Shown one piece after another: positions 6,501 through 33,496 of a stretch of DNA of 64,000 nucleotides. This stretch comes from Vairimorpha necatrix. Lineage: Eukaryota. The position numbers were made by a program, and so were the translations under genes. The DNA is taken from contig CP142727.1 of the NCBI GenBank assembly GCA_036630325.1, positions 496,001 to 560,000 of the forward strand. The letters run 5' to 3'. The first letter of the stretch is position 1. Each line of letters starts with the position of its first letter. The notes beneath the pieces were generated by a model. That model saw nothing but the letters and a program-made list of their open reading frames with translations, was not told the DNA's origin and ran no database searches.

Positions 6501-6574
6501 ACTCTCTTGTTTCCCTGTTCATCCTTGTGTTCGCCATGTTAACCATTTATTTATTAAGGGTTCTAAACCCTACA
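3511..6574 (-). mobile_element. mini-LTR Ty3/gypsy-like retroelement, family A copy 1 (3064 bp)
   Basis: Identical 38-bp TG..CA direct repeats at 3511-3548 and 6537-6574, 5-bp TSD CTTGA, PPT next to the 3' LTR, candidate PBS TGGCGAAC next to the 5' LTR. Confidence 0.97.
3537..6546 (-). pseudogene. frameshifted Gag(CCHC)-RT-RNaseH-integrase polyprotein of family A copy 1
   Basis: ORFs 4423-6546 and 3537-4394 match the intact 1006-aa ORF at 21431-24451, apart from a 2-bp deletion near 4441, a 9-bp in-frame deletion (KVE) and a few substitutions. Confidence 0.92.
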
Positions 6575-13100: not shown

Positions 13101-13586
13101 CCACAAATTCGGCGGAAAACGACATCCTAAATCAATATAATTTGTAAAGAAATAGCAATATAACTCAGTCAAGCATTCCGGAAATTTTCTGTCTTGTTTT
13201 AGTTCAAAAAAAGTAGACAATATTTCGTCATATTCAACATATGCAAGTGCCATAAGAGACAAAACAAACCTTTTCACCATAGGTGAACATGTGTAAACAG
13301 AAGAAAGTCCTGAACTTTTAACACGCCTATCAATAGCCTGAGCTAAGTGAAAAAGACAACCTGAAATTTGATAATCCGGGAAAACTATAGAAAATGCTCT
13401 TATCGCAGCATGCTTGGCGTGCTGCGCAGGAATGCGGCTTGTTCTAGAGTAATACTCTAAAGAACTATATGTCTGCCCGTCTGTGTCTGGCGCGCTTTTA
13501 TAATGTTTATTGTAATTATGTTAATTAAATACTTTTTTATTTGGGTTCATCTCCCTTTTTATTATCGGGTTTAAAATAAAATATTA

Positions 13587-16500
13587 TATAAGTGCTTAAC
13601 ATAATTGGGGTTTAATATTATTACTGATTATAACATCCCCCCTCCAGACGGTTAGTCTCCTTCAACATACTTTAAATCCCCTACACCCTTAAGATCATAA
13701 TGCCTTTTTTTCACCAACCTTCCATTCTCTAATCTCACTATATATGAATCCCCTGGACATAGCTCAATCACTCTTCCCATGTCTAAAAACCGACCCTTAC
13801 TATACTTACTACATCCCTTTAAATTCTCATTCTTGGCAACCCTAACTATCTGGTTCCTTTTGAACTTTTCTCTAAACCAACTTTTGAACTGTTGCGCATA
13901 CTTTCCCTCTGGACTATTCTCCATACTAACATTTCCTGTATTATCGGTTAAAGCTTCTACTGGCGTGCACTTAATGCCAGCATGAAAACTTAAATTATAT
14001 TTCTCAATAGCTTCATAAACCTTGTTCTCGAATTTCTCTTTTTGGCTCTTTAAAATACTATCTCTTACAGTTCTAATAACTCTTTCTACTCTTCCATTAC
14101 TTCTGTGCGCCTCAACGCTGACCTTTCTATGACTAATATCCAAATTTCTACATAGCTCGGTAACTTTTTCGTTGCAAAACTCTTTACCATTATCCGTAAT
14201 GATTTCCTCTGGTTTTCTACCCTGTTTACACAAATCCTTGATAAATTCGGCAATTCCAGATGCGTGCTTGCTCTTCAATACTCTGCCCCATAATCTCCTT
14301 GTAAAGTAATCAACTGCCAAAACAATAAACGCTTTCTCATCCCTAAATTCTATTAAATCTAAACCAACCTTCTCTAAATATCTTGTCGTGTTCACTAAAT
14401 CAGTACCGCCACTCGTTTTTCTATTAAAAATCTGACAAGTCTCGCAATTCTTAAGGACCTTTTCGATCTGATCCTTAATTCCTGGCCAATAATACTGTTT
14501 CCTCAACTCATAATATACCGTTGTTCTGCTTCTGTGGCTCAAATTTACATGACAATCCATTATTAATCTCTCTCTGTCTTGTTCCAAAGGCATCTCGCCT
14601 TCTCTACCACTATCAAATACCCAGTATTCTTTACCTTCTACAATTTTTACATGCTTATTTCTTTTCCCTTCTTTTTGTCTATCACGGCGTGTTTCATTTC
14701 TCTTTTTCTTTGCATCTTTTTCTTTTGTATATACCCTACCTAGCGCATCGGCTACGACCATATTTTCTGGAGTTCTATATTCTATCACAAAATCAAATTC
14801 CTGAATCTTCTCGACACATCTATTAATTCTAGCATTCTTAAAGTCGGGCTTGTTTCTTATTTCGCCCAACGCTTTATGATCAGTTTCTATTCTAAATTTC
14901 CTACCTCTTAATTCATATTCAAACTTTTTAACGCCCCAAAAAACTGCATACATTTCTTTTTCTGATATACCATAATTAACTTCCGTAACGGTAAACTTCT
15001 TAGACGCCCACTGTACTGGCACCCATTCTCCTTGATTATTTTTCTGTAACAGTACTGCGCCCATGCCTACATTACTAGCGTCAGTCCTCAACAAAAATTC
15101 TTTATCATAGTCTGCTATTTGCAGCTTTCCTAGGCCTTTTAATACTTCTTTTAAATTATTAAACTCGTTTTTCATATCATCCGTCCACTTCCAATTATCA
15201 TTCTTCCCTTTTAAACTATCTGTCAACCTAACTGTCAATCCAGCGTAATTCTTAATAAAATCTCTGAACCAACCCGTCATTTCTAAAAATCTTCTTACAT
15301 CTGACACGCATGTTGGTATCGGAAACTCTAGGGCTTCATTTTTCTTTATCTCTGACGGTATTATATCTTCTCCATTTAAAGTGACTCCCAATAATTTAAC
15401 TTCCCGTTGACAAAACTGAACTTTATTTGCATTCAGCTTCATATTGTTTTCCTTCAGTCTATTTAATACCCTTTTCACTAATTGCTCGTGTTCTCCTATC
15501 GTTCGGCTGTACAACACAATATCGTCCATATACACCTCTACTCCTTTGCCTTTCATATCTCTAAAAATCCTATCCATAATTCTCTGCAATATCTGCGGGC
15601 TATTCTTATATCCCATAACCATAGAGTTCCATTCATAAACCTTGCCATTAAAATCAAACGCCGTCTTATGTTTATCCTCCTCCTCTATCTCAATACTATA
15701 GAAGGCCTCTTTTAAGTCGAAAACCGTCATATATTTTGCACCTTGTGTAGCTCTTACAACATCTCTTATGTTAGACAATCTATACTCGTCCTTTTCTACA
15801 ATATCTTTCAATGCCATCAAATTACTAACCAGTCTTATCTCACCATTTGGCTTTCTGATTGACCTTATAGGATTCCTCCAACTTGAATTTGACTCTCTTA
15901 TCACTTTCCTTTTTAATAAATCTTCTAGATGTAGCTCTGTATCTTTTATCAACGCCTGCGGAACCATTTGTTTCTTTTTAAATACCTTCATACCCGCTTC
16001 AGTATTAATTTTACATTTTTCCTGTTTACAATATTTTATCTCCTCTTTTCCTAACTTAAAAACCTCTCCAAAACTCTTAGCATACTTATCTAAATTTAAT
16101 CTGATTCTCTTACTCTCCTCTTTAACGGCATATTCTTTTTGATTTTTCTCAAATTTGACTCTAAGTCCTCTTTTTGATCTTCTAAAATCTCGCTCCTGAC
16201 TCGACTCTGATTCACTACCTACTTCCATTTTGGAACTGTTATCCTTGTTATTCTTTTTATAATAATTATCTCTATTAATCTTCAGTCTGCATTCAAACAC
16301 CCTATGCCCTTGTCTATCACAATAGAAGCATCTCGGTACTCTCGATTTTTGTCTTGGTTGTTCTCTACTAATTTCTTCATTTATAGTCCTAGAAATAATT
16401 TTTCTCATTTCCTCATATATATTTTCTTCCTCCTCTACTTCCTTAATCCTTAACAATAGCTTCTTCCTTATTCCTTCAATATTTTCTTCCTTTTTGATAT

Positions 16501-16729
16501 TTCTCACAATAAAATCTTTTAAATCCATCGAAGCCAACTTGAACAGCTCACTCTTCCATTTTTCTCTATCCACATCTCTCAAATCCAATTCATACAATAT
16601 ACGCTCTAACTCCTGTAACATCTTTCTGACCACTTGGCCACAGTCCTCTCTTGTGAACTCTTCTTTAGGTATCGCCCCCATATAAGTGCTTAACATAATT
16701 GGGGTTTAATATTATTACTGATTATAACA
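13587..16729 (-). mobile_element. mini-LTR Ty3/gypsy-like retroelement, family B copy 1 (3143 bp)
   Basis: Identical 49-bp direct repeats at 13587-13635 and 16681-16729, 5-bp TSD TATTA, PPT GGAGGGGGGA, and PBS TGGGGGCGATACC (tRNA-Pro-like). Confidence 0.97.
13652..16696 (-). CDS. single-ORF Gag(CCHC)-RT-RNaseH-integrase polyprotein, family B
   Basis: 1014 aa. CFYCDRQGHRVFEC knuckle, YMDD, RTDASNVGMGAVL, and ITDNGKEF / SNGRVER. A few normally conserved residues differ from copy 2 (FLEMTG, NRCVE, DALGR). Confidence 0.93.
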   Translation of the reverse strand: MLSTYMGAIPKEEFTREDCGQVVRKMLQELERILYELDLRDVDREKWKSELFKLASMDLKDFIVRNIKKEENIEGIRKKLLLRIKEVEEEENIYEEMRKIISRTINEEISREQPRQKSRVPRCFYCDRQGHRVFECRLKINRDNYYKKNNKDNSSKMEVGSESESSQERDFRRSKRGLRVKFEKNQKEYAVKEESKRIRLNLDKYAKSFGEVFKLGKEEIKYCKQEKCKINTEAGMKVFKKKQMVPQALIKDTELHLEDLLKRKVIRESNSSWRNPIRSIRKPNGEIRLVSNLMALKDIVEKDEYRLSNIRDVVRATQGAKYMTVFDLKEAFYSIEIEEEDKHKTAFDFNGKVYEWNSMVMGYKNSPQILQRIMDRIFRDMKGKGVEVYMDDIVLYSRTIGEHEQLVKRVLNRLKENNMKLNANKVQFCQREVKLLGVTLNGEDIIPSEIKKNEALEFPIPTCVSDVRRFLEMTGWFRDFIKNYAGLTVRLTDSLKGKNDNWKWTDDMKNEFNNLKEVLKGLGKLQIADYDKEFLLRTDASNVGMGAVLLQKNNQGEWVPVQWASKKFTVTEVNYGISEKEMYAVFWGVKKFEYELRGRKFRIETDHKALGEIRNKPDFKNARINRCVEKIQEFDFVIEYRTPENMVVADALGRVYTKEKDAKKKRNETRRDRQKEGKRNKHVKIVEGKEYWVFDSGREGEMPLEQDRERLIMDCHVNLSHRSRTTVYYELRKQYYWPGIKDQIEKVLKNCETCQIFNRKTSGGTDLVNTTRYLEKVGLDLIEFRDEKAFIVLAVDYFTRRLWGRVLKSKHASGIAEFIKDLCKQGRKPEEIITDNGKEFCNEKVTELCRNLDISHRKVSVEAHRSNGRVERVIRTVRDSILKSQKEKFENKVYEAIEKYNLSFHAGIKCTPVEALTDNTGNVSMENSPEGKYAQQFKSWFREKFKRNQIVRVAKNENLKGCSKYSKGRFLDMGRVIELCPGDSYIVRLENGRLVKKRHYDLKGVGDLKYVEGD

Positions 16730-18364
16730 TATTATAAAAATAAGAAGGAGGGAAAATAATTAAAAATTGTAATTTCATCCTATAGGAAATTTAGATGTTG
16801 TGTGGTCATAATACCACAATACTCAAAATCGGTTTTTATTATACTTGGGTTGAGCTCTGGAAACCTTTTCTTTAACATTTGAAACAAAAAACAATAGGTT
16901 TTAAAACTTTTATCTTTCAAAATTGCAAATATTATCGGGAATACGTGCACATCACGGATAAAACTACCGTGTGAAGTTGATAATATGGAATTGGAACCAC
17001 CGTAAGGTCCCATCCATCGCCCACACGTCATATAGAGCCAAATTTTCCATAGCCGAATCTGTATAAAAAATTATTATACTGTCATTGGGTTCGTCACTCC
17101 CGTAATTTTCAGGCTCATATCGATGCCATTGTTCGCCTGTATGACTGAAAAAAAATCAACACATAAACCCAATTTTTGGTTGGCGTATGGTTTTGGATTA
17201 AAGGAATTCATCCGAGCATTCCTTAATATCCTTGCAATAGGCTCAATAGGACCAACTGCGGCGATTGTTTCGTTTCCAGCTCCTCTTAAGGCAGAAAGTA
17301 TTTTTCTAGGAGAATCTTTGGAGATGATTTCCCGTTTCATTTTATCTATTTTATTCTTCTTACAGACCAGTTCAGGATTTGGTTCATGATTATGAGCAGA
17401 AGAAATAATAAAGGATTCGAGATTATTGACGTAAACAATATTACTGGTGGCTTTGGCATTACAGCTTCGTACAATGCATCGCCACTTTATAGTAGTTTTG
17501 TTGATTCTTTTTTTCTCGTAAATATATAGATTTTCATCTATTATTTGATTCATATTCCTGTTGCTTTTAATGATACTTTTTGGCCAGGTCATAGGGGTAA
17601 AAAATAAAAAAATAAAAAAGTTCGTTTTTTTTATTTTTTTATTTTTTTAACCCCTAAAACCGGGACGAAAAAACCGGGTACCATTTGGATCCATAATAAG
17701 AATAATAGACTACAGTGTTAGAACATACTTTCTAATCTTTAAAAATATATATTGCTTCAGATATACAAGATTATAAATCTTATCGACCATAAAGAACACA
17801 TTATGTTTCCATACTATTGGGCGGTTTGTTCATATAACTTTTCATTAAATTCACTTCATAATAGTTTTTGTTTGGAACTAGCAACTAACATTAAAGTTGT
17901 TCTATTAATTTGGTTTTGAATATTTGTAATTAATGAAAAATAAAATAAATCTGCATTTTAAACTCAAATTTTTTGCATGTTCGATGGAATAATAACATGC
18001 ATTCTAATGATTGCTACTTTACAGTAACATTATCAGTCTTTGAATAAATACATAAAAGACATATCTAAATTTATTTCCTTGTAGTTTTTTTTAATGTTTG
18101 TAGATAATTAATGCTTTATCAGCATCTGAAAAAAATAAAAATCAAGAATGCAAAGTTTAACGTAATCTCGAATTAGTACAAGATATTATTTTGTTTGTAT
18201 TAAATGGAAATATTTTGTCTTGTGCTCAAAAAAATTTTCTATTTTTCGTATTTGTCTTTTGGCATATACTTATTTACACTTAACGGCTAAAATCAGCTTT
18301 AGTGTAAAAAAAATGGGGGTCAAAATTTTTAAAAAATTGCCCCTTTTTTTAAAAAACGAAGGGA

Positions 18365-19707
18365 ATGCTAAGTAAAGAAGAAATTGAAGATTTTTATGAA
18401 CATCTGCTAAGAAAGAAATATAAACAGAAATGTTCAATTTGTGGCTGGGATACATCTAGAGTATCTAACGAAACATTTTATTTGAGATGTAAATTTCCCA
18501 AATGCGGCCAAAGATTTTCAATTTGGAATAATACTCTATTTTCAAATAGTAAGATAGATCATATTCTTATGCTGAAAATTGTAAATCTATGGACAATGGA
18601 ACTTAAAATAGCGCATATTTCTAAATTTTTGGACTGTAATATGCAAAATGTAAGTGCTACACTTGAGAAATTATATAAATTAAAAATTTATGAAAAATCA
18701 TATATATAAAAGAATTTTATTTAATTTTTTACCCCTCTTTTTTATGGTTTTGTAAAATCTAAACTTCTTATTATAGCTTATTGTGATATTAAAATATCAA
18801 ATATAAACTCAATGAAGGATTTTGACTATCATATGTGCGTGTACTGTATGTTAATACATTTTGATTTTAATTCTTTGTTTTGTAAAACTCAGTTCCAAAA
18901 TATCGTCAGAATCGTTTTTTAGAATTTATTTGACCCTTCCACGAAAAATTGCAAAAACAATTAACTAATAAAGATTTTGAATATAAGTGTCAAAACTTGA
19001 GCTTAGAATTTCCCAAACTTATCTTATTATAATTATTAAATGTTTTTAGATCAAATTTACTCCTTATATGTTACTAAAAAGTATTTTTCAAAATCATGTT
19101 TTCTCCTTTTCAAATTCCTTCTTCCCAAAATGGAAATTCACAAAAAGATAAAGGAGGTACATATTATAAAACAAAACTATAAATCCCGTTTTCAAAACGG
19201 GAAAGCATACGCTAGTATATAAATAAAACAAAACAAATAGGAGGCGAAAATATCATAGTGGAGATCGACGAAAGTAAAATAGGTAAGAATAAATACCACA
19301 GGGGAAAATTAGTTAAAGGATTTTGGTGTTTTGGGATGGTAGAAAGAACAACAGAAAAGAAGATAATATTTGTCATAATAAATAAAAGAAACAAGGATAC
19401 ATTGCTGCCGATCTTATTTAAGCATGTAAATTTGAAATCTATCATTCATTCCGATATGTGGAAGGCCTATATAACGTTAAAAAGCCATTACACGGACCAT
19501 AGAACTGTAAATCACAGTCAAACATTTAGAGACAGAGAGACAGGTGTGCATACAAACACCATCGAAGGAAATTGGAGGTCTTTAAAAGCCTTTATACCCA
19601 ATAGGTGTAGAACATATGAATCTGCTGAAATATATTTAGTTCTATATATGATTGAAAGAAATGAGAGCGAAGACATCTTCAAAGCATTATTAAAATTATG
19701 TTTTTGA
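18365..19707 (+). pseudogene. Merlin transposase split by a Helitron (274 aa when rejoined)
   Basis: N-terminal zinc ribbon (CSIC...CKFPKC) and the motifs VEIDESK, IHSDMWKAY, VNHS and VHTNTIEGNW. Removing 18698-19215 gives the in-frame join KIYEK-YINKTKQIGGENIIVEIDES. Confidence 0.92.
18698..19215 (+). mobile_element. non-autonomous Helitron (518 bp)
   Basis: 5' TC, 3' CTAG, subterminal hairpin CCCGTTTTCAAAACGGG, inserted between A and T with no TSD. Confidence 0.92.
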
Positions 19708-20140
19708 TATATTTTATTTATTTTAAAGTTAATTTTCATGCATTTTTATATCTTAATTATATTTTATTTTTTTTCTTTACTTAGCATTCCCTTCGTTTTT
19801 TAAAAAAAGGGGCAATTTTTTAAAAATTTTGACCCCCCCCCCCATTTTTTTTACACTAAAGCTGATTTTAGCCCACTTAGCATTAAGGCTCTTGGATCTG
19901 CCTTAGTATATAATTTTATGTCATGATTTTTTTTTGTCAAACATTTTTTCTCTTTTTCTTTCAGATTTGATGCAAATCTTTGATGTTTCTCCATACTCTG
20001 AATTTTAAATGATCTCTACAAGAAGCTTGGATTGATGTAACGTCATATAATTCTTTCAATAGCTTTTATACACGCAATTTAGTCAAATTATGTATTACCG
20101 TTTTTGATTTTTTTTTTATTTAAAAATTGATGCCCTTTAT

Positions 20141-20596
20141 ATGTTTTGCTTGATTTTTAACAATGTACTCACAAGTAGAGAAATAACAAAAGAAGGATTT
20201 GATAGTACTGTATTACTTACACAGGACTGGCAAACACATTCAATAGAAACGAAAAAATGTTTACAAGAAAATGCCAATGAATATTTTATGCCAAAGTACC
20301 ATGATATGCACGATAAGTCTCAAGAAAATACTGAAATTACCTCATTATTAAATCATCAAAAAATATCAGAAACAAAAAAAAAGAAGGATGGATGGGCAAA
20401 AGTATTTGTAATATTATTTCTAGTATTTATTTATATTTTATCAATTATAAGTGTAGGTGTGATTATATATTATTGTAGAAATGATATTATTGAATTTAGT
20501 AGAAAAATTTTCACATATGTTTATCAGATGTTAACTACTAACTCTTATAATAGTTCAACTCCTTTCACAAACGAAACAACTATTAATGATTTTTAG
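20141..20596 (+). CDS. lineage-specific membrane protein
   Basis: 151-aa ORF with CCC upstream of the ATG and one TM span. The C-terminal half is similar to 9862-10158. Confidence 0.7.
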   Translation: MFCLIFNNVLTSREITKEGFDSTVLLTQDWQTHSIETKKCLQENANEYFMPKYHDMHDKSQENTEITSLLNHQKISETKKKKDGWAKVFVILFLVFIYILSIISVGVIIYYCRNDIIEFSRKIFTYVYQMLTTNSYNSSTPFTNETTINDF

Positions 20597-21404
20597 CATT
20601 AAAATTAATTGTTTTTTTTAATGCGACAAAAAGTTTTTTGAGACGGTCTTTATTTTTTTTTATTATGCTATTGTTCATATTAAGCATAGATTATTATTTT
20701 TTTCATCATAAAATAGATGATTAATTAACACACTCGATAAATTTACAACTACTTCATATGTAACAATCGAGAAGTATAATGAATGGAAAAATAAACAAGA
20801 TTTATACGACGGGTGTTCTTCAAATTTAATTTCAATAATATAACTCGTAAAAAAATTTCTACGCAGAAGTAGCAAATACCGAACTTATAAAATTCAAATG
20901 GGGAAACCTCAAACATTTAAGAAAGAACGGTAAAAGAAAGATGGTAAGTCATGTTTAAATACGACAGAGTTTTCTGGCACAAAATATAACCCATTGTTTC
21001 GAAAAAACCGAAGTCTTTCTTGTAACGCTTAGTGTTTATTAAGTAGTTAAATTTTAGAATTTTTATGTGTGAGCTGTGATACTCATGTTTGTACAGTTGA
21101 CCAGTCATTGATGTATCTGTTGGTTTGTTTTTTATTTATGTTTTTTGATTTTACAAAATTTTTATGGTGGTTTTGTCATATTGTAAATCATTAACGATAT
21201 AATTTACTTTTACAAGCAGAATAAATTGTTTTTTGTTTTGATTTGTTTTTATGATTGCAAAAATAGAAAATTTATCTTGCATTAAATCATGTTAATTATC
21301 TGAATTTACATAAAAAACTATTGATTATTCGATTGTCGACTAAAGAATGTAGTTTACTTTTAATTTCAGTTTTAAGAGTTATATATGTAAGTTTTTATAT
21401 GTAA

Positions 21405-24400
21405 TGTTAATCATTTATTTATTAAGGGTTCTAAACCCTACATCCCCCCTCCAGACGGGTAGTCTCTCCATCTTCTAAACAACTCTTCCTTATCTCTTTC
21501 AAATCATAATGCCTCTTTTTAACAATTTTACCATCCAGTAGTCTCACAATATATGAATCATTTTCACTTATAGCTACGATCCTTCCGCGACCCGTGAATC
21601 TTCCCTTGTCTGTTTTCGCACGTGTACCTAAATTTTCTCTCCTAGCGATTCTTACCTCTTGGCCTACTGTAAATGTCTCTCTGTGTCTTCTCTTGAACCG
21701 ACCAGCATATTTTCCATTTTCATCATTTTCAATTATAACTTCAGCAGTTTGATCTCTCCACGCTTCCATCGGCGTACATTTTATTGCTGTATGTAGTGTA
21801 TTATTATATCCTTTGATTGCTCTTTCTATCTTTTCAGAAATATTCCCATAATTTTGCTTTATCAATGTCTCTCTTATAGTTCTGATGCATCTCTCGATTC
21901 TACCATTACTCCTATGAGCTTCTAAGCCCACTTTCCTATGTTTAATATCATTAATACTACACCATTCTTTAAATCTATTACTTACAAACTCTTTTCCGTT
22001 GTCTGTCACATATTCCTCTGGAAATCCATCTTCCCTTATCCACTTTTGTAATACCTCTATAACTTCACTACTCTCTTTACATCTCAAATTCGAACCCCAC
22101 AACCTTCTAGTAAAGTAATCAATACCCAGTAACACATACCTATTCTCTCCACCTATGTCCATTAAATCCAACGCCACTTTCTCCAATTTCTTTCTAGTTA
22201 CTACGAAATCACATCCTCCTGTGTTTTTCCTATTGTTAATCCCACATATTTCACAATTCTTAATTACCTTATTAATATGATCTTTCATACCAGGCCAATA
22301 CCATCTTTGTTTAATGTTATAATAAGTGCCTTTGACACCTCTATGGTTTAACTCCTCATGTACTCTTGTTATTTCATGTTCTCTACTATCTAGGCTCAAT
22401 ATCTCTTTCACCTCACCTGTGGAAAATTCCCAATACTGTTTACCGTCCTTTTCTTTAATATGTTTCTGCTTTTTTCCCAAAATTTGTTTTTCGATCACTT
22501 CTTTTCTCTTGTTGTCCTTTTCTTTTTGTTCATCCGAAACTTCTACCTGATCATACTGCCTGCTTAACGCATCTGCATCTGTCATCAACTCCCCTTTCAC
22601 ATACTCTATTGTAAAGTCAAACTCTTGTATCTGTTCTACCCATCTGTTTATTCTGTTATTATTGAAGTATGGCTTATTTCTGATCTCTGCTAATGCTTTA
22701 TGATCCGTCATCAAATGAAATTTCCTTCCTCTCAAATCACTTTCAAACTTCTTTATTCCAAAAAACACCGCCAACATCTCCTTCTCACTTATCGTATATC
22801 TTCGCTCGGTAGGAGTCAACATTTTCGATGCCCATTGTATCGGAATCCACTCACCCTCTTTATTTTCTTGTAATAGAATTGCTCCGATCCCCGTATCACA
22901 CGCATCAGTTCTTACTCTAAATAGCTTTTTTCCGTCCGGAATCTTCAACTTTTTCATATCTCTCAAGCCTTGCTTCATATCCTCAAAAGCTCTTTCCATA
23001 TCCTCCGTCCAATTCCACTTAACATCTTTCTTTAAAGCCTTAGTAAGCCTTACTGTTCTATACGCATAGTTGGGAATAAAGTCTCTAAACCAACCAGTTA
23101 GTCCTAAAAATCTTCTTAACTCTCTAACATTCTCAGGTTTTCTATATTCCAATGTCTCCTGCTTTTTAATCTCATTCGGTCCCATGACCTCCCCATTAAT
23201 TGTTACTCCCAGCAACATCACCTCATCTTTTTTGTATTGTATCTTTGTTTGGTTTATTCTCAACCCACACTCTTTAAACTTTTTAATTACCCTCTCTAGT
23301 AACTCGTCATGCACTCTTACGTCTTTACCATGAATAACTATATCATCCATATATACTTCCACGCCTTTACCTCTAAATTCATCTAAAACTCTGTTCATTA
23401 CTCTCTGCATTATATGAGGCGAATTCTTAAACCCCATAACCATACTATTCCATTCGTATACTCGACCATTCACTTCAAATGCTGTTTTGTGCTTATGGTG
23501 CTCCTCAATCTCAATATGATAAAACCCTTCTTTTAAGTCGATAACCGTAAATACTTTTGACCCCTGTGTGGCTCTCATAATATCCTTAATTAACGGTAGT
23601 GAGTACGGGTCCTTGTCAACCAAATCGTTTAACGCCATCAAATTGCTTACCAATCTTACGTCCCCATTTGGTTTTTCAAGTGCTCTTATTGGACTCCTCC
23701 ACTCACTTTTGGAACGTCTTATAACCCCTCTATTTTCCAACTTATTCAAGTACTCCTCAAATTTCACCCTAAGGTAGTATGGCACATTCTGCCCTCTTTT
23801 CACAACCTTTTCACCTTGCTTAGTATTTATTGGACACTTCTCTCCTGTGAGATATTTTATCTTTTCTTCTGATTCTTTAAAAACTTCCGGATACTTTTCA
23901 ATTAAATTTTCTAACTTATTTACTGTTTTACATCTTTTCCCTTCATTGTTGATAATTGGTTCTTTCTGTAAAACTTGTTCCTTTTTAATTTTATATTTTT
24001 CCCTACCAGCTACACTTTCATGACATTCTCTAGCGTAATGCCCTTCTTTCTTACATATAAAACATTTTGTAGTTTCTCTGATTTCTCTTCTTTTCCTATA
24101 CATCCTAAGATTTTCTTTTCTTTCTTCCCTAAACTCTTTCAACACTTTATCCATAATCTCTTTAATCATTTCTTGTCTTTCTTCTGACTCTCTCTCAAAT
24201 TCTGCTCCTTTTTGTAAGCCTTTATAAATTTCCTCCCAACTGCTCCTTCCGTCACAAAAATTTTCAAAAATATAATCCTGCAAGTTCGCAGATGCCAAAT
24301 CCATAACATCTTTCCACTCAACTTTCTCAACTTTCAATATTAACTTTAGTCTCTTATCTATCCTAATTGCCTCTTTCTCTAATGTTCTATCCTCTTGACT

Positions 24401-24479
24401 AAGGGACTCTCTTGTTTCCCTGTTCATCCTTGTGTTCGCCATGTTAATCATTTATTTATTAAGGGTTCTAAACCCTACA
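21405..24479 (-). mobile_element. mini-LTR Ty3/gypsy-like retroelement, family A copy 2 (3075 bp, apparently intact)
   Basis: Identical 38-bp LTRs at 21405-21442 and 24442-24479, 5-bp TSD TGTAA, PPT and candidate PBS. Confidence 0.97.
21431..24451 (-). CDS. single-ORF Gag(CCHC)-RT-RNaseH-integrase polyprotein, family A
   Basis: 1006 aa. CFICKKEGHYAREC, YMDD, RTDACDTGIGAIL, HHCC finger, and VTDNGKEF / SNGRIER. It starts in the 5' LTR and stops in the 3' LTR. Confidence 0.95.
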   Translation of the reverse strand: MINMANTRMNRETRESLSQEDRTLEKEAIRIDKRLKLILKVEKVEWKDVMDLASANLQDYIFENFCDGRSSWEEIYKGLQKGAEFERESEERQEMIKEIMDKVLKEFREERKENLRMYRKRREIRETTKCFICKKEGHYARECHESVAGREKYKIKKEQVLQKEPIINNEGKRCKTVNKLENLIEKYPEVFKESEEKIKYLTGEKCPINTKQGEKVVKRGQNVPYYLRVKFEEYLNKLENRGVIRRSKSEWRSPIRALEKPNGDVRLVSNLMALNDLVDKDPYSLPLIKDIMRATQGSKVFTVIDLKEGFYHIEIEEHHKHKTAFEVNGRVYEWNSMVMGFKNSPHIMQRVMNRVLDEFRGKGVEVYMDDIVIHGKDVRVHDELLERVIKKFKECGLRINQTKIQYKKDEVMLLGVTINGEVMGPNEIKKQETLEYRKPENVRELRRFLGLTGWFRDFIPNYAYRTVRLTKALKKDVKWNWTEDMERAFEDMKQGLRDMKKLKIPDGKKLFRVRTDACDTGIGAILLQENKEGEWIPIQWASKMLTPTERRYTISEKEMLAVFFGIKKFESDLRGRKFHLMTDHKALAEIRNKPYFNNNRINRWVEQIQEFDFTIEYVKGELMTDADALSRQYDQVEVSDEQKEKDNKRKEVIEKQILGKKQKHIKEKDGKQYWEFSTGEVKEILSLDSREHEITRVHEELNHRGVKGTYYNIKQRWYWPGMKDHINKVIKNCEICGINNRKNTGGCDFVVTRKKLEKVALDLMDIGGENRYVLLGIDYFTRRLWGSNLRCKESSEVIEVLQKWIREDGFPEEYVTDNGKEFVSNRFKEWCSINDIKHRKVGLEAHRSNGRIERCIRTIRETLIKQNYGNISEKIERAIKGYNNTLHTAIKCTPMEAWRDQTAEVIIENDENGKYAGRFKRRHRETFTVGQEVRIARRENLGTRAKTDKGRFTGRGRIVAISENDSYIVRLLDGKIVKKRHYDLKEIRKSCLEDGETTRLEGGCRV

Positions 24480-24578
24480 TGTAATATAAATAAAGTTTTT
24501 TTAGATGAAAAAAGAAACTTACTAGCTGGTAAAAAAAAACATTGTTTGGCCTTGCACATAAGAAAATTTTAATGATAA

Positions 24579-25021
24579 TTAGACCTCGTTGATTGTTGTA
24601 CTCTGCGATATTGAGGTCATATTATAAACCAGATCGGCATGTTGTGATTGTTATAAATATTCAAAAGTATTTTATTGAAATTGATAGTGTTATATCTGCA
24701 ATACTATATGTTTGCTGCTACAAAAACATTTATAACAATATAGAAAATAATTAATATTAGCTTCGTTATTATTGTTAGCCATTTAGACTTGTCTTTTTTA
24801 ACTATTGTGGTTTTTTTTGATATAAAAACGGAGTTAGTTTGATATTTCATTAGAATCCTCATCTGTATCAGAAATATCAATTACAAGAAAATTGTACCTA
24901 ACTTCTCGTAAATTGTTATTGTTTGTTATTTGAGAATTTTTTTTTGTATTAATGTTACTAGCTTATCAATTTCTTCGTGTATTCTGGTAGTAAAAACTTT
25001 TATAAAGTATATAACAAACAT
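24579..25021 (-). pseudogene. pseudogene of the 9862/20141 membrane protein family
   Basis: Hand translation gives a CCC-preceded MFVIYFIKVF start, then after frameshifts KKDKSKWLTIITKLILIIFYIVINVFVAANI*YCRYNTINF, ending STTINEV*. This matches KKKDGW...YYCRNDIIEF...ETTINDF in the paralog. Confidence 0.65.
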
Positions 25022-27288
25022 TTATGGGTAAAAAATTATCAAGTATTTTTATTATACCCTACATCAATATTCCAAGACATTATATTATTATAGTTCAGGT
25101 ATGATACGGGACCCTTTATGCGGACAGAAATAGTTTTTGTGGCCTATACTTATATGCAAAGTTACATAGTTATCTTCTCTAAGAATATATCAGCAAATTA
25201 AGAGAACTTTATAAACTAGTAGTTACAGAAAAGTTTAAGTGTTTATTCTTTAGTTTTTGTAAGAACAAATTTTATACTTGAAACATATTTTGATAACGTT
25301 TTAAAAATTGGTTCTCGTAACATTTTTTTATATTATTGATGTTTTTGTGTTATGACTTCATTTTAGTACTAATTTGTCTCTCGTTGCACATACTTATGAT
25401 TAAGCACTATGTATGCAACTCGCTTACATTTATTGACTATAAAGATCTCATATATATATAAATATATTTTACTTTAAGGAGTCGCATCTGAAACTTAGAT
25501 TGAATGCATGCCTTTAAAAATAGGTATTACAATATTTGTACCGACATAACATGGTACTTAGTATTCACACTTTTTTTGCAAGCTACAAATTTTTTTGCAA
25601 TACATGCCATAACTATATTTATAGCTAAGAATAGCAAACTTATAGTATTTTTACCTCAAAATTATATTTGCTGAGAAAAAGTTATAATTTATTAGTCGTA
25701 ATTTAATTTTATGTAAAAGACCAACAAGATTCTACTTGATCTATATGTTCATTTCATGATATATATCAACGTAACACTATTATTAGTACGGCCGCTTCAT
25801 AGAAAAGTAATTTTTGCAAACTTAAATTTCCATTCAATGCGATGTAAATGATATTATATTAACAATTCTTTGTGTATTCATTCTGTAATGCAGAAAATAA
25901 TCATATTACATTTTCTAAAAGGTGGTATGTCCTCTTTATAGCCTTGCTACAGTACAAACCTTGTAACTTTAACTATAAAAAATGAGTATTCGTTTTACCA
26001 TTTATATGTCTGTCTTATTGTTTTGTATTGATTTCTGTGCACCTAATCCAAATATTTATTCTATAATAGAAGATACTGCGATTTTAATCAACGTAAACCT
26101 CAAATGTAAATACTTGTTTTATTTCGTTTTGCATTAAATTTATTTTAAACAACTTATATTTTAAATTATATTGATCTATGGTTATATTATATCTGCATTA
26201 TTAAACTCATAAAATATTTACAAACAATAAATACCATTTTTAAGTACTTAAATATGTTTACTGTTTTTCAATTATTATAAATTATTCTGTTTTAAATCCT
26301 CTTTTAAAGTCAAAAAACATCGATTTATTGGATTTATGTATAGCATCTGTACTCATAGAAGTAGCTGCGATTTTTTTCCTATAAGAATATAAGTGGTGAC
26401 GTTTTTTTACTATTATCAATCTTTTTATTATATTTTTTCTGTAAATTTATAGCTCAAAGTTAGATTAATAATTATAAATTATGACAGTAAGTTGCATTAG
26501 GTATTTCATTATAAAAATCAATCTGTAAATTTTTTCCAATAAATCCTAAATTTATTACTACTTATTTTTTTCAAAGTATACTGTAACTATTTTCGGTCAA
26601 TCTAAGATGCTTATCAATTTTTTTTAAAAAAATAACTATTTGTATTTTATTTAAGCCGTTTTCGGGAATTTTTACGTTTGATTATAATTTTCTTTTTTAT
26701 GAATATAAAAATTACATTATGAATACTTTAAAGAAAATTTAGCGTTTGTCAAAAGTATTAAGTAATTGTTATGTATAGTCTATCTCATATATATATTCTG
26801 TTATTTTTGTTGTACATGGGCCATGATCAATCTAAAGAAGAGCAAACCTATTTTATTGCTAAAAAAAGTATTATTAAAATTTAAAATTGTTTTATTAAAG
26901 GCAAAACAGCAAAAAATTAGGATTTAATGTCCAACCAATATAATTAATGCGGTTTTAGGCTAGAAAATATTTTCCTCATTATTTATGGATAAAATGAAAA
27001 TAATAACGTTCATAAGGCAACTCTAAACTATTTTTTATGAACAATATTTACTAGGTCCAAACTTTTATTGACTAGATAAAAACATAACAAACAATACAAT
27101 TCTCTATAAACTTTTTAGTTCATTGCGATAAAAGGATTATTTGTAGAATTTTGAAGTTTTAAAGCAAAACAAAATTTAAATAAGCTATGAATTGCTAAAA
27201 CATTTTAATAAATTCAATACTCATACAAACAAAGCTATTGTCATTTAAATGTAAATAGAAAAAAACAATCTTTCGTGTTTTTACGAAA

Positions 27289-29512
27289 TCATCATATATA
27301 TAAAAGAATTTTATTTAATTTTTTACCCCTATTTTTTGTGGTTTTGAAAAATCTACACTACAAATTTTAGACTTATTGTGTATTAAAAATATCAAATTTA
27401 CATCTAATGTTTCGATGTGATTATTGTAAGTGTGTATATTATGTGTTAATGCATTTTTATTCTAATTATTATTTTTGTTAAACTCAGTTCCAAAATATTG
27501 TCAGAATCGTTTTTTAGAATTTATTTAACCCTTCTAGAAAAACTTTAAAAACAATTGACAAAAGAAGAAATTGAATGTAAGTATCAAAAACTGAGCTTAA
27601 GAACTTCCCAAAATTATCTCATTGAGATTATTAAATGTTTTAAAACAACATTTTTCCTTATATGTTACTAAAAAGTATTTTTGAAGATGATGTCCAAACT
27701 CTGTCAAATTCAATCATCCAAAATGGAAACTCAACAAAATTAAAAGAGGGAATACATATTAAAAAACTAAACATTTAGATCCCGTTTTCAAAACGGGAAC
27801 GCATACGCTAGTCATATATATAAAAGAATTTTATTTAATTTTTTACCCCTCTTTTTTGTGGTTTTAAAAATTCTAAACGATACATTTTGAGCCTTTTACG
27901 TTAATATAATATCATATATAGATTTAATGTTTTAATTTGATAATCATCATATATATAAAAGAATTTTATTTAATTTTTTACCCCTCTTTTTTATGGTTTT
28001 GTAAAATCCAAACTTCTTATTACAGCTTATTATGTTATTGTATTGTCAAATTTAAACTCAATGCTTAAATTTGATAATTGTAAGTGCGTATACTATATAT
28101 TAATGCATTTTTATTCTATTTATTATTTTTGTAAAACTCAGTTCCAAAATATCGTCAGAATCGTTTTTTAGAATTTATTTAACCCTTCTAGAAAAAATTC
28201 AAAAAAACATATACCAAAAATAAGTTGAATATAAGTGTTAACAATTTAGCTTATAAGTTCCCAAAATTATCTCATTATAATTATAAAATGTTTTTAGCTC
28301 AACTTTACTCCTTATATGTTACTAAAAAGTATTTTTCAAAATCATGTTTTCTCCTTTTTAAATTCAGTTATCCCAAAAATGGAAACTCAACAAAATTCAA
28401 GGATCAAAGACATATTATCAAACTAAACATTTAGATCCCGTTTTCAAAACGGGAAAGCATACGCTAGTCATATATGTAAAAGAATTTTATTTAATTTTTT
28501 ACCCCTCTTTTTTGTGACTTTGAAATTTCTAAACGATATGTTTTGGGTCTTTTATGTTAATATAATATCAAATATAGATTTATTGCTTTAATTTGACTAT
28601 TCTAAGTGTGTATGTTATCAGTTAATACTTTTTAATTCTATTTATTATTTTTGTAAAACTCAGTTCCAAAATATCGTCAGAATCGTTTTTTAGAATTTAT
28701 TTAACCCTTCTAGAAAAATTCACAAAAATATTAACCAAAGAAAAAGTTGAATATAAGTGTCAAAAATTGAGCTTAGAAGTATTCAAAATTATCTAATTAT
28801 GATTTATAAGTGATTTTAGCTCAACTTTACTCCTTATATGTTACTAAAAAGTATTTTCAAAAATCATGTCTAAACTATGTCAAATTCAATCATCCCAAAA
28901 TGGAAACTTAACAAAATTTAAGGATGAAAGACATAATATAAAACTTAAAATGTAAATCCCGTTTTTTAAAACGGGAAAGCATACGCTAGTCATCATATAT
29001 ATAAAAGAATTTTATTTAATTTTTTACCCATCTTTTTTGTCAATTTTAAATTTCCACACTATATATTTTAAGCTTTCTATGTTATTTAAATATCATATAT
29101 AGATTTATAGCGATAATTTGACTATTCCAAGTGTGTATGTTATTAGTTAATACTTTTTAATTTTGATTATTATTTTTGTTAAACTCAGTTCCAAAATATC
29201 GTCAGAATCGTTTTTTAGAATTTATTTAACCCTTCTAGAAAAAATTCACAAAAACATGTACCAAAAAAAAACAGCATAAAAGTGTTAAAATTGAGTTTAG
29301 AAGTTCCCGAAATTATTTCAATATGACTCAAAAGTGTTTTTAACTCAACTTTACTCCTAATATGTTACTAAAAAGTATTTTTGAAAAAGATGATTTCATC
29401 CTATCAAATTCAATCATCCCAAAATGTAAACTCAAAAAAATTCAAGGATCAAAGACATATTAAAAAACTAAACATTTCGATCCCGTTTTCAAAACGGGAA
29501 AGCATACGCTAG
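27289..29512 (+). repeat. head-to-tail array of non-autonomous Helitrons (four full ~520-bp units plus one short 5' fragment)
   Basis: Units start TCATATATATAAAAGAATTTT at about 27289, 27812, 27944, 28468 and 28990. Full units end hairpin-GCATACGCTAG at 27811, 28467, 28989 and 29512. Same family as 18698-19215. Confidence 0.9.
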
Positions 29513-29597
29513 TTATTAATATAATATTATTTTTTTTTCAAATTCTCAAAATACTATTATCATTTTACTTTCAAAATAAAAAATTTAAAATAAACTC

Positions 29598-30860
29598 GGA
29601 GGGGAGGTACCACAGTACCCTCCTCTGAGGGTGTTTACTTTATTTTGTCGAACCCCAAAATCGAAGTTCAAAAAAAAGAGAAAGAAGAAGACAAAAATTA
29701 CTAGAACTTACTGATAGTAAAAATACATAATAAAATGATAAAATGACTTAAAATTGAATTTCAAGATTTAAAAATGTTTCTAAATATATGATACAAAAAA
29801 AATTGAAATTTATACAAATTTATTTACTTTATTCTAGTTTTTATTTAATAGTCCTTAAAAATGATAGATCTCTATAAGAATGGCGAGAAAATAATGGAAA
29901 AAATGATTATAAGTACATTAGAAAGCAGATTTTGTCCTTTATACCTTGGAAATGTACATCGACGTTTGGAAATACTTAATCAAATGCGTTGTACCACAAA
30001 AAGCTGTCGAAAAGAATATACAATAACGAAAGAGAAGCCTATTTAATGCTAAATTATCTTGGTTAAAAATATGCCAGGTTCTATATCTATTGTTTGAAAA
30101 CAACTTTCAGAATGATTTAAAACCCACTTAATATCCACAAAAAACAATCTATAGAATTATCAGAAAAAGTAGTAAACATATAACTGGTAATATCATTATT
30201 GGAGGACCAGGTATTGTTGTAGAAATCGACGAATCTAAATTCGGAAAGAGAAAAAACAACAAAGGCCACAAAGTTGACGGTGTGTAGGTAATTAGGATGG
30301 TTGAAAGAACAGCCGAAAGAGGTCTAGTGCTTCTAAAAGTAAAAAACAGAAAAGCCGAAACTCTTGAAAAATTAATAAAAAAATATGTAAGTCCCGGAAG
30401 TTTTATATTTATCGACTGTTAGGAAGGTTTTTTAAATTTAAATCAATTGGGGTTGTACGAACACTACACTGTTAACATTCTCTTGGTTTTATAAATCCAG
30501 AGAATGGTGTTCGTACTAACACGATCGAAGGGACATGGGTTGGTGTTAAAAGAGTGATTCCTGCCAGACATAGGACTGAGAAGGATATAAATCGTTATTC
30601 TAATTTATTTACTTTTGAAGAAATAATCCAACAAATACGATCGAAATATTAATAAAAAAGACATTTTACAAATAAATCTAATTTTAAAATCAATTTTTGT
30701 ATTTAAATTTATATTTAATTATTTTTTTTTACTATCATAAAGTTCTAGTAATTTTTGTCCCCTTCCTGCTCCTCCTTTTTTTGCATTTCGATTTTGGAGA
30801 TCGAAAAAATAAAGTAAACGGCCTCAGAGAGGGGGGGGGGTACAGTGGTATCTTTCACCC
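29598..30860 (+). mobile_element. decayed Merlin transposon
   Basis: Imperfect long TIRs and transposase remnants IGGPGIVVEIDESKFGKRK and TNTIEGTW, with stops and frameshifts. Confidence 0.85.
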
Positions 30861-31048: not shown

Positions 31049-33382
31049 ATGTCAAAGGAGGAGATCTCATGCAAGATATGCCATGCAGTAGAAACAGAAA
31101 TGGAGAATTTTTGTTGTCCTTGTAAATGTACAGGAAGTATAAAATTTATTCATAGATTTTGTCTATTGAAATTTATAGAGAGTAGTGGTAAAGAGTTTTG
31201 TACGATCTGCAAGTACAAATATAAATTTAGAAGTATTTACAAAAAGAACACGCCTTCAAGATTGCCTATAAATTTGATAATTAGAGAAATATTTCAGAGA
31301 GTTTTAAAATGCATAAAATACATATTTAATACATTGATGATATTGTCAATAATATGTCTAGTGGTTTATATTAATGGAAGTTTGTTTCTTCGATTTATTT
31401 GCAATAATATTGCAGATACCCATTTAAATATATGCGGGGTGGGAATTCCTATTACTTGCATTTCATTTTCGTTTTATTGTTTGTATTATAATGTTACCAG
31501 AGTAACAAGAAGTTTAACTGTAAGAAGGAACATTAGAGTTGATTCGTTGAGTGTTATTAGTTCAATGGCCAGCGAGGCCATATCTTATGATGAAGCACCA
31601 AGGACAATATTGTCAAATATAGCGAATGAGAGAGATATTTCATTTTTGAGTACGACAGACGACACAATGCCGCCAAGGAACGACTCAAGTGATGAAAACT
31701 CAGAAGATACACAAAACCAAGTTGATGATTTTATTTTCCATGTTTCTATTGATTTTAAACTTATTCCAAAGTGTTGCAGTCTCGTACTTTTCTTGGGTTT
31801 GTTTTTAAAAATCGCTAATTATGTCCTTTATGATCTGCCGAATTGTCAATTTTCTGATTTTTTACGACAAGTTTGTTTGTACGATCTTACAAAAACAGTC
31901 TTTGTTGTTTACACTCTTTTTTTAAGTTTGCTTTTGATAACTTGGAATTTTAAAAAAATTTACGATTTTCTTAAACTTCTTAATTTAATATTTGTCTGTT
32001 TTGCGATCATTGTTTTCGTTGATGGGGTGTGTGTTCATTTTTTATTTGCTAAGATTTGCAATAATGGCGTATTGGTTGATTTGGCCACTACATATTCCAG
32101 TGTTTTTAGTAGTTTTATATTTCATATGATTATAGGATATGAATTTAATTCATTTTTTAAGAATTGTATTTTAAGCTACGCCGATAAATTTAGACCTGGC
32201 ATGTTATGGAGTGTGGCCGAACCAACTGAAGGATCTTTTGATTTCTTGTACAAATTATCACAAAGGCCTTTACACGTCTTATTTTATAAAGCAATCAGGA
32301 ATTCTCTCTTTCATCTTTTCACTTACTTGGTTATATTGACTACAGTAAAATCGGAAATCAATAGAACTTTCCAAATTTCTGATATTTACAAGTTCGTGAT
32401 ATTTTTTAGACTCAAAAATCTTATCAATTCGGCATTGAGGCCTTTCTTGGAAGGAATGTCTTTTCTTAATTCTAAGATTCTGAAATATCTGTCAAGATAT
32501 TTTAAAATGGAAAATTTATTATTTGGTGAAAAAATTTTATATGGTAGAAATATGGAAGGAAATATCAAGTGGTGTCCCAACAAGCATAAATATTATGACA
32601 GTAATAAAGTAAACAGAAAGCGCAATAAAAAAGCGACACCTCTTCAAATAGAAAAATATTTTAAAATGAGTCACAACAATAACTTTGGTTTATTTTATAT
32701 TCCGAAATTTAACAAATTATATCTTGGAATATTTTCCCTGTTGATTATTGTTTCCACTTCTCTGGGCTTTAAACTTGTTCTGCGTCTCACTAAGATATCT
32801 TATAATTTTGTCTTGTCTCGGTCTCCCATCTTTTCACACATAGCAGATTATCTTTACATTCTCTTAGCAGGCTTGGTTTTCTTTATTTTCACTATTCCTT
32901 TAAATATTAAGAAATTTAAAAATATTCACAAGAAGATTTTGCTTCTTCTTTATGTGAATGTCTTCTGGCCTCTTTGGATTTCTGGCCTTACTATTTTTTA
33001 TTATGGGGATGAATCTTTTAATTTACTCCCGTCTAGATGTTTCATGATGTTCTTTGCTACATCTGACACTTTGAAATATTTATTTAACAATTTGATCTTT
33101 TCTGCTTCTATTCAGTATTATTCTTTATTTGAGATCTTTAAGAAGTTATATACTTTTACTTGGTCTACTACATTCTGTATTTCCACAGCAGTGCAGTTTA
33201 AATCGTGGATATCAATGATATTTAGATTTGGTTTGAATATTCCACTGTTTTATTTGATACCATTTGCCTTCATATTAATTTTCCATAATAATAGAATCGT
33301 AGAATTTTATAAAAGATTTTTAGAAAATATAAAACAAGAGAATTACCTTGTAGATCGAGAAATAGTAAATTATAATGAGTGA
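31049..33382 (+). CDS. SSM4: RING-CH multi-pass membrane E3 ubiquitin ligase, Doa10/Ssm4/MARCH6-like
   Basis: N-terminal RING-variant CKICH...PCKCTGSIKFIHRFCL...CTICKY, followed by many TM spans and a TD-domain-like FRPGML motif. Confidence 0.85.
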   Translation: MSKEEISCKICHAVETEMENFCCPCKCTGSIKFIHRFCLLKFIESSGKEFCTICKYKYKFRSIYKKNTPSRLPINLIIREIFQRVLKCIKYIFNTLMILSIICLVVYINGSLFLRFICNNIADTHLNICGVGIPITCISFSFYCLYYNVTRVTRSLTVRRNIRVDSLSVISSMASEAISYDEAPRTILSNIANERDISFLSTTDDTMPPRNDSSDENSEDTQNQVDDFIFHVSIDFKLIPKCCSLVLFLGLFLKIANYVLYDLPNCQFSDFLRQVCLYDLTKTVFVVYTLFLSLLLITWNFKKIYDFLKLLNLIFVCFAIIVFVDGVCVHFLFAKICNNGVLVDLATTYSSVFSSFIFHMIIGYEFNSFFKNCILSYADKFRPGMLWSVAEPTEGSFDFLYKLSQRPLHVLFYKAIRNSLFHLFTYLVILTTVKSEINRTFQISDIYKFVIFFRLKNLINSALRPFLEGMSFLNSKILKYLSRYFKMENLLFGEKILYGRNMEGNIKWCPNKHKYYDSNKVNRKRNKKATPLQIEKYFKMSHNNNFGLFYIPKFNKLYLGIFSLLIIVSTSLGFKLVLRLTKISYNFVLSRSPIFSHIADYLYILLAGLVFFIFTIPLNIKKFKNIHKKILLLLYVNVFWPLWISGLTIFYYGDESFNLLPSRCFMMFFATSDTLKYLFNNLIFSASIQYYSLFEIFKKLYTFTWSTTFCISTAVQFKSWISMIFRFGLNIPLFYLIPFAFILIFHNNRIVEFYKRFLENIKQENYLVDREIVNYNE

Positions 33383-33483: not shown

Positions 33484-33496
33484 ATTTACCCCTATG
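33484..33496 (+). promoter_or_regulatory. microsporidian CCC-like start-proximal motif (one example; recurs at most genes)
   Basis: TTTACCCCTATG. Similar CCC tracts lie shortly upstream of the ATGs at 7210, 9862, 17592, 20141, 31049, 36863, 40395, 50308, 56213, 58882 and 63205. Confidence 0.7.

Follow-up and report, generated by a model that had tools for sequence, protein, structure and literature searches.

How short can the repeats of a long terminal repeat (LTR) retrotransposon become in a host whose own gene signals are tiny? The question is raised by a 64,000-nucleotide stretch of the genome of the microsporidian Vairimorpha necatrix (assembly GCA_036630325.1, contig CP142727.1, positions 496,001 to 560,000), hereafter the window, which holds six element copies bounded by direct repeats of 37-49 bp. 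These six copies very probably represent a branch of the microsporidia-specific Ty3/gypsy retrotransposons that has been stripped to approximately 3.1 kb and works through tiny, host-like signals. The reference copy is element A2, located at 21405-24479 of the window.

Architecture of element A2

Element A2 consists of the following parts, given with their window coordinates, target-site duplication (TSD), open reading frame (ORF), primer-binding site (PBS) and polypurine tract (PPT).

21405-24479, minus strand: complete element A2, 3075 bp, with identical LTRs, TSD TGTAA and an intact ORF
24442-24479, minus strand: 5' LTR, 38 bp; its sense strand begins TGTAGGG and ends TTAACA
24428-24441, minus strand: candidate PBS TGGCGAACACAAGG, immediately 3' of the 5' LTR and translated M-A-N-T-R
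21431-24451, minus strand: single ORF of 1006 aa, 3021 bp including the stop codon, out of 3075 bp
21443-21452, minus strand: PPT GGAGGGGGGA, abutting the 3' LTR
21405-21442, minus strand: 3' LTR, 38 bp; the ORF stop codon TAG occupies LTR positions 10-12
21400-21404, no strand: left TSD copy TGTAA, adjoining the element
24480-24484, no strand: right TSD copy TGTAA, adjoining the element

The LTR sequences at 21405-21442 and 24442-24479 are identical. On the sense strand the LTR reads TGTAGGG...AATAAATAAATGATTAACA and is joined without a gap by TGGCGAACACAAGG. Within these 38 bp, CCC occupies positions 15-17, AATAAA occurs at 20-25 and again at 24-29, and an in-frame ATG at 29-31 is the first ATG of the ORF. 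The final A of the LTR joins the TG of the TGG that opens the PBS to give a second in-frame ATG. The ORF covers 3021 of the 3075 bp, the figure already given in a first-pass annotation of this DNA.

Copies in the window

Further copies were located by tblastn of the A and B proteins on the window and by repeat searches. The 64-kb window contains five full elements (A1, A2, B1, B2 and the decayed C) and the 3' end of a sixth (D).

3511-6574, minus strand: element A1, 3064 bp, with identical 38-bp LTRs at 3511-3548 and 6537-6574 and TSD CTTGA
13587-16729, minus strand: element B1, 3143 bp, with 49-bp LTRs at 13587-13635 and 16681-16729 and TSD TATTA
13652-16696, minus strand: intact ORF of B1, 1014 aa
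40557-43698, minus strand: element B2, 3142 bp, with 49-bp LTRs at 40557-40605 and 43650-43698 and TSD ATTTA
40651-43665, minus strand: intact ORF of B2, 1004 aa
44381-48293, plus strand: element C, decayed, with LTRs at 44381-44418 (38 bp) and 48257-48293 (37 bp) and TSD TTAGT/TTGGT
1-654, plus strand: element D, 3' end only, with the integrase C-terminus, PPT and a 49-bp LTR at 606-654; TSD not available

The A and B copies are 3.06-3.14 kb in length. A1 and A2 are 99.25% identical, A1 carrying a 9-bp deletion and a 2-bp deletion, the latter of which splits the ORF by a frameshift. B2 is 99.14% identical to B1 and has a single 1-bp deletion close to its 3' end; the PBS-like site of B1 is TGGGGGCGATACC. 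In element C the pol region is fragmented, and foreign DNA of approximately 815 bp, with long inverted ends, interrupts the element at about 44605-45418. This insert (44605-45418) resembles a non-autonomous miniature inverted-repeat transposable element, and its end sequences recur at 39107-39460, 29545-29677 and 2634-2675.

The five full elements with direct repeats of 38, 49 and 37-38 bp had been proposed in the first-pass annotation and are retained here with corrected coordinates. The same annotation had described D as a truncated copy with a 49-bp LTR. The LTR is present, but the copy ends at the edge of the window, which itself cuts D, and the label "truncated" is therefore unjustified.

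Termini and age of the elements

The LTR pairs are 100% identical in four of the five full copies by blastn-short, and the exact 38-49-bp repeats reach E-values of 1e-17 to 1e-23. A different 5-bp TSD for each copy had been predicted, and a 5-bp TSD indeed flanks all five full copies, perfectly in four of them; the chance of a perfect match at all five bases is 0.0022 per element at local base composition. Between sister copies similarity ends at the LTR boundary, where 15-19 of 40 flank bases match, compared with 37-49 of 38-49 within the LTRs. Identity running past the proposed termini, which the first-pass annotation had named as a test of its proposal, was thus not found. A single base separates the LTRs of A1 (ATGG) from those of A2 (ATGA), and the variant is shared by both LTRs of each copy, as expected when both LTRs are regenerated from one template. 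Families A, C and D have TG..CA termini, and B has TG..TA.

The candidate priming sites also lie where predicted, as the PBS-like and PPT sequences exactly abut the repeats. The PPT is GGAGGGGGGA in A1, A2, B1, B2 and D and GAGGAGGGGA in C, and its final base abuts the 3' LTR throughout. At the other end, the first base after the 5' LTR opens TGG in A and B and in three relatives described below (L003, L005 and L018); C has AGG. A tRNA scan and an Rfam scan of the 64-kb window each returned no matches. Self-priming of the Tf1 type was rejected, since a complement to the PBS was not seen in the LTR on inspection by eye.

Because the LTR pairs are identical, three of the five ORFs are intact and the sister copies are 99.1-99.3% identical, the view that the copies in the window are young or recently active, as first proposed, is supported. 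Solo LTRs of any family were absent from the window by blastn-short. The region 12800-25300 was also compared with contigs of four sequencing runs (X1-X4). Contigs of two of these runs hold the same elements at 99.4-99.8% identity, although one run may equal the source sample. Among the matches listed, element pieces in the run contigs stop within LTRs, and in run X1 the element pieces are 99.4-99.8% identical and the flank pieces 94.4-99.7% identical; given this spread of flank identity, no argument on age is drawn. A 360-nt contig of run X1 joins 13409 to 16819, skipping B1 together with 177 bp and 84 bp of its flanks. The 13409/16819 locus is structurally polymorphic, yet it does not provide a clean empty site. 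The left flank piece of this joint has a 74% relative at 2542-2630.

Coding capacity and autonomy

Ty3/gypsy elements (Metaviridae) are characterized by the order reverse transcriptase (RT), RNase H, integrase (IN), by 5-bp TSDs, a tRNA-type PBS, a PPT, TG..CA ends and a CCHC nucleocapsid (NC) knuckle. In yeast Ty3 the LTRs measure a few hundred bp, gag and pol occupy separate frames, and both a protease and a capsid domain are encoded. The window elements share with Ty3 the domain order, the TSD, the placement of PBS and PPT, the TG..CA ends and the CCHC knuckle, but they differ from it in having LTRs of 38-49 bp, one ORF, and no detected protease or capsid fold.

In A2 the CCHC knuckle lies at aa 129-144, RVT_1 at 259-418, RNase H at 481-611 (Pfam RT_RNaseH 508-611), Integrase_H2C2 at 690-741 and rve at 766-839. 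The Pfam order RVT_1, RT_RNaseH, Integrase_H2C2 and rve is alike in A2, B1 and B2, with the DDE integrase last as in Metaviridae. The zf-CCHC match (aa 129-143) scores 20.9 bits against a cut-off of 20.8. LTRs and short TSDs are both present, the LTR length of 38-49 bp lying far under the usual range, and the PPT stands next to the 3' LTR. The Ty3/gypsy identity assigned in the first-pass annotation is upheld by the domain order, by the abutment of the PBS-like and PPT sequences and by the 5-bp TSDs.

Within the N-terminal 250/280 aa of A and B, Pfam found no aspartic protease family even at E<=5. In A, the CCHC knuckle and the RT motif S-x-W-x-x-P are approximately 117 aa apart, a distance that ranges from 113 to 192 in the 34 database relatives with both motifs, and a D[ST]G[AS] string occurs upstream of RT in one of the first 51 database relatives. 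Two distant relatives give a weak aspartyl-protease match under the Pfam cut-offs (L018, E 1e-4; P0045, E 4.5e-4), and P0045 has approximately 100 additional residues that are aligned to gaps in the window proteins. Since these distant relatives keep the weak match and P0045 is longer by about 100 aa, we read the protease as having been lost within the lineage.

An AlphaFold2 model of aa 1-200 of A (14-row alignment, mean predicted local distance difference test score 73) predicts three short helices, a 56-residue helix, the knuckle and a further helix. A Foldseek search of this region against the PDB for a capsid fold gave no matches at E<=0.001, and only retroviral NC knuckles at E>2. Look-alikes of the N-terminus retrieved by a language model fall in Retrotrans_gag clusters at 0.78-0.81, a weak lead below the 0.9 lead level.

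It is tentatively suggested that these are the smallest self-sufficient LTR retrotransposons on record, at 3.06-3.14 kb with 38-bp LTRs and 98% coding sequence, operating as a cis-acting ribonucleoprotein free of protease and capsid. In such an element one unprocessed NC-RT-RNase H-IN polyprotein would perform all steps, the 56-residue N-terminal helix may multimerize, and first-strand transfer would rely on a repeat of no more than about 10-20 nt. Translation would begin within the LTR and would run through the PBS and, in A, the PPT as well.

A somewhat unlikely alternative is that the copies are real LTR retrotransposons that, having shed the protease and the greater part of gag, are non-autonomous and mobilized in trans by larger, protease-bearing microsporidian gypsy elements of the same genome. 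It draws on the missing protease family in A and B, on the N-terminal fold without a capsid match and on the weak protease matches (E 1e-4 to 5e-4) kept by the distant L018 and P0045. In addition, Anncaliia algerae has many families of 3.6-4.3 kb alongside the small retro L described below. However, RT, RNase H and integrase are intact, and the format of approximately 1000 aa is kept in a 33-row clade over several microsporidian genera, whereas parasites of other elements usually lose pol. None of the relatives P0001-P0051 has a protease family in precomputed Pfam lists, from which weak matches can escape, and a protease-bearing element was not seen in the window, though 64 kb is small.

Signals within the LTRs

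In the LTR of family A, AATAAA lies at positions 20 and 24, CCC at 15 and ATG at 29. Family B has ATTAAA at 20, CCCC at 26 and ATG at 34, and D has CCCC at 26, ATG at 34 and AATAAA at 40. The 3' LTR of C has AATAAA at 19 and 23, CCC at 15 and ATG at 28; its decayed 5' LTR has lost CCC. Thus A1, A2, B1, D and the 3' LTR of C all have an A/T-rich stretch and CCC(C) 4-11 nt ahead of ATG together with AATAAA or ATTAAA, and five relatives (L003, L005, L011, L017 and L018) follow the same grammar when read by eye. The LTR ATG is in frame with the ORF in all six families with a 5' LTR (A, B, C, L003, L005 and L018). The ORF extends from within the 5' LTR to just short of the 3' LTR in B, C and D, or into the 3' LTR in A. 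The predicted N-termini of database relatives agree with this, showing a short extension followed by the junction Met and A-N-T-R/K or G-A, which is the translated PBS.

Comparable signals precede host genes. In the window, five of six host ORFs have CCC 0-4 nt ahead of ATG, after A/T-rich sequence. In Encephalitozoon cuniculi, passages of a study by rapid amplification of cDNA ends report 5' untranslated regions (UTRs) of less than 7 nt (Peyretaillade et al., 2009; PMC2803860). They also describe a CCC-like, rarely GGG-like, motif immediately 5' of start codons in several microsporidia, and a polyadenylation signal AAUAAA, with AUUAAA in 25% of cases and frequent read-through (PMC2803860).

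From these signals it is plausible that the promoter, R region, polyadenylation signal and integrase attachment (att) sites all fit within 38-49 bp. An LTR of this length would be enough because microsporidian genes need only an A/T-rich stretch, CCC a few bases 5' of ATG and a 5' UTR of a few nt, while AAUAAA or AUUAAA close to the 3' end would act as the polyadenylation signal. The first 20-30 nt, comprising the att end TGT..., the hexamer and CCC, would form U3, and transcription would start just 5' of the LTR ATG. First-strand transfer would use the last 10-20 nt as R(+U5), a segment that holds the start codon and the terminal ..ACA att end; retroviral R regions can be down to about 15 nt long. 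In families A and C the proposed start site would come after AATAAA, so that the hexamer would enter the transcript only at the 3' LTR. Priming would rely on a tRNA at TGG... and, for the plus strand, on the conserved GGAGGGGGGA. The CA|TGG junction of LTR and PBS would yield the second in-frame ATG, making the PBS coding, and the unprocessed NC-RT-RNase H-IN polyprotein would presumably act on its own RNA.

Alternatively, the repeat could be essentially R, with transcription arising from outside by read-through or from an internal promoter and the LTR serving for strand transfer and integration. A promoter has little room in 38 bp, read-through is frequent among microsporidia, and both read-through and polycistronic transcripts are documented for E. 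cuniculi in the passages of PMC2803860. This explanation is nevertheless improbable, as each LTR family retains CCC and an in-frame ATG at host-like spacing. A start upstream of the LTR would also produce strong-stop DNA with a non-homologous 3' end, and chance upstream promoters are ill-suited to a lineage that has radiated in many species.

Relatives and prior record

The A and B proteins share 47% amino-acid identity, which bears out the earlier description of a radiated lineage. Named relatives of the element protein come from Nosema granulosis (73% and 70% over parts), V. necatrix and Enteropsectra breve, and many further relatives sit on contigs of 3.0-3.2 kb. The relatives were placed with FastTree in a tree of 67 rows (fast alignment, Shimodaira-Hasegawa-like support, compositional warnings), which included 31 close relatives of at least 880 aa from P0001-P0051 and the first 28 of the P0052-P0120 rows of at least 1000 aa. 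A2, B1 and the V. necatrix and E. breve proteins fall in one 33-row clade of approximately 1000-aa proteins (support 100). A larger clade of 39 rows, also with support 100, encloses it and is separate from 28 gypsy-type rows from animals, plants or elsewhere.

DNA of the relatives was obtained from one metagenome scan and one genome-collection scan. L017, which is 67% identical to A at the amino-acid level, has GGAGGAGGGGA followed by a 38-bp LTR resembling that of A, and L011 has a 49-bp candidate LTR 3' of its PPT. L005 and L018 carry 67-bp LTR pairs, each followed by TGGCACCCGA. In L003 a PPT, a 59-bp LTR and TGGCACCCGA stand mid-contig and the contig is permuted. Purine tracts similar to GGAGGGGGGA occur in L003, L011, L017 and L018. 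A scan of viral contigs gave 36 pattern matches and no relatives.

Two observations concern the contigs themselves. In L003 the order at 1380-1560 is integrase end, PPT, one 59-bp LTR, PBS and gag start, in circular permutation, which could reflect a collapsed LTR assembly, an LTR-sharing tandem pair or a 1-LTR circle. The contigs of L017-L020, P0001 and P0050 are filed in bacterial metagenome-assembled genomes (Clostridium sp., Erysipelotrichales, Turicibacter and Thermoguttaceae); retrotransposons in such genomes are probably binning contamination from microsporidian DNA.

In A. algerae, retro L is listed with an LTR of 50 bp, an ORF at 32-3049 and a total length of 3127 bp (Parisot et al., 2014; PMC4202319, Supplementary Table S1). 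The same table gives LTRs of 45, 73 and 90 bp for retro S, CK and BU and of 105-272 bp for the other complete consensuses, and by our own tally the ORF starts within the LTR in 43 of its 50 complete A. algerae consensuses. The novelty of the architecture that the first-pass annotation had implied is therefore not supported. The 5' end of retro L resembles families B and D in TGTTAT, an A/T-rich segment with AATAAA, CCC abutting ATG, TTAACA and TGGCG, a likeness judged by eye over the first approximately 600 printed bases and carrying no identity figure. Retro L belongs to another microsporidian genus, and family A of the window is shorter at 38 bp. Most A. algerae families measure 3.6-4.3 kb with LTRs of 105-272 bp, so that the window elements represent the small extreme.

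Passages of Parisot et al. (2014) describe microsporidian gypsy elements as single-polyprotein and microsporidia-specific (PMC4202319). These groups (PMC4202319; cited in passages of PMC13174016) encode one gag-pol polyprotein and not two ORFs, and have diversified within microsporidia, in both respects like the window lineage. With a single gag-pol ORF and their closest kin in microsporidia, the window elements are well supported as further members of this known clade. In the main-text passages of PMC4202319, LTR length is not discussed and the word "protease" does not occur. Searches of the literature on short and shortest LTRs, microsporidia included, brought up no text on LTRs under 100 bp. 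The short-LTR architecture is thus already on record in the table of PMC4202319, but it is not analysed in print within the literature searched. The loss of the protease and the start codon inside the LTR are worth describing and, together with the coding PBS and PPT, go beyond the first-pass annotation. The Nbr elements of Nosema bombycis, treated by Xu et al. in 2006, and entries in Repbase or Dfam may have the same architecture.

Outside microsporidia, the TARE1 elements share with the window an atypical TA LTR end, as in B, and a PPT ending GAGGGGGGA, according to passages of PMC3701649. Unlike the window elements, TARE1 is of copia type, measures 4.7 kb and has gag and a full pol, and the same passages call an LTR of 194 bp already "very short" for plants (PMC3701649).

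The LTRs of 105-272 bp in most A. algerae families could suggest that the repeats are remnants of ordinary longer LTRs trimmed by deletion in this genome. This is very improbable, since the repeat ends coincide exactly with TSD, PBS and PPT in five copies and three families, the LTR pairs are identical, and relatives of unrelated origin, as well as retro L, also have short LTRs (38-67 bp in the relatives). Chance repeats or an assembly artefact, for which nothing was found in favor, can be practically dismissed given the E-values of the exact repeats (1e-17 to 1e-23), the TSD match probability of 0.0022 each and the presence of the same elements at 99.4-99.8% on contigs of two other runs, one of which is maybe the source sample.

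Several observations weigh against the reading of the copies as a stripped microsporidian Ty3/gypsy branch using host-like signals. The TSD of C (TTAGT/TTGGT) has one mismatch, and the B LTR terminus TA is non-canonical compared with CA. The PBS is defined by its position and its TGG start alone because the window is without a tRNA gene. The layout of LTR signals is uneven, with AATAAA 3' of ATG in D and only ATTAAA in B, and we infer the U3/R/U5 partition, the start site and the polyadenylation site from the letters of the LTR. Autonomy is unproven because a protease and a recognizable capsid fold were not found. Among the matches listed, a TSD-bounded empty site was absent from the contigs of runs X1-X4. 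Lastly, the 5-bp flanks of L005 and L018 match in neither case; we assume that these two may be chimeric repeat assemblies.

Other features of the window

The host ORF at 31049-33382 (RING-variant) is 71% identical to the V. necatrix MARCH6 protein, in keeping with a host of the Nosema/Vairimorpha clade. A helicase of the SNF2 family is split on the plus strand between two neighboring ORFs, 33494-34276 with SNF2-rel_dom and 34358-35254 with SNF2-rel_dom and Helicase_C. The second of these (34358-35254) is without the CCC start motif, and the split could reflect a frameshift, a pseudogene or a short intron.

Other mobile or repeated sequences are also present. The only domains recognized in a 574-aa ORF at 7210-8934 (plus strand), within 6860-9567, are of integrase type, namely rve (28.7 bits) and Integrase_H2C2 (24.0 bits), both slightly under the Pfam cut-offs. 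The ORF is flanked by long terminal inverted repeats at 6900-6995 and 9433-9527 that are 98-100% identical and extend outwards. The unit at 6860-9567 resembles a DNA transposon carrying an integrase of retroviral type, of a kind we take to be "Ginger-like". The "rve" consensuses in Table S1 of PMC4202319 may be of the same kind. A 123-aa ORF at 19336-19707 (plus strand) matches DDE_Tnp_IS1595 (E 1.7e-14) and is a Merlin-type transposase fragment; the Merlin superfamily is reported as abundant in microsporidia in passages of PMC4202319.

A sequence of about 520-525 bp is repeated in tandem, at 27292-29516 and 18698-19219. In runs X1 and X2 the bins at 18638-19471 have by far the highest word depth, and run joints around 18693-18698/19214-19216 show 518-520-base skips and reverse-direction entries. 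The repeat fits an abundant satellite.

Implications for LTR retrotransposons in microsporidia

That standard finders would miss such repeats, as the first-pass annotation had warned, agrees with the LTRharvest default minimum LTR length of 100 bp (Table 1 of PMC2253517). Default LTR finders are blind to LTRs of 38-67 bp, and microsporidian copies will therefore be called by pol similarity alone, missed, mis-bounded or filed as "hypothetical proteins".

Short LTRs have been tied to few solo LTRs in plant elements in passages of PMC3701649, and the window likewise holds none. LTRs as short as those of the window should seldom recombine to solo LTRs, which would close the usual route of removal from compact parasite genomes. 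The elements show the limit of LTR shrinkage where the promoter and UTR grammar of the host is tiny. As a minimal system found in nature, they also allow one to ask what the lower limit of R length is and whether an element can do without protease and capsid. If the elements are indeed self-sufficient, they would define the minimal cis and trans needs of LTR retrotransposition.

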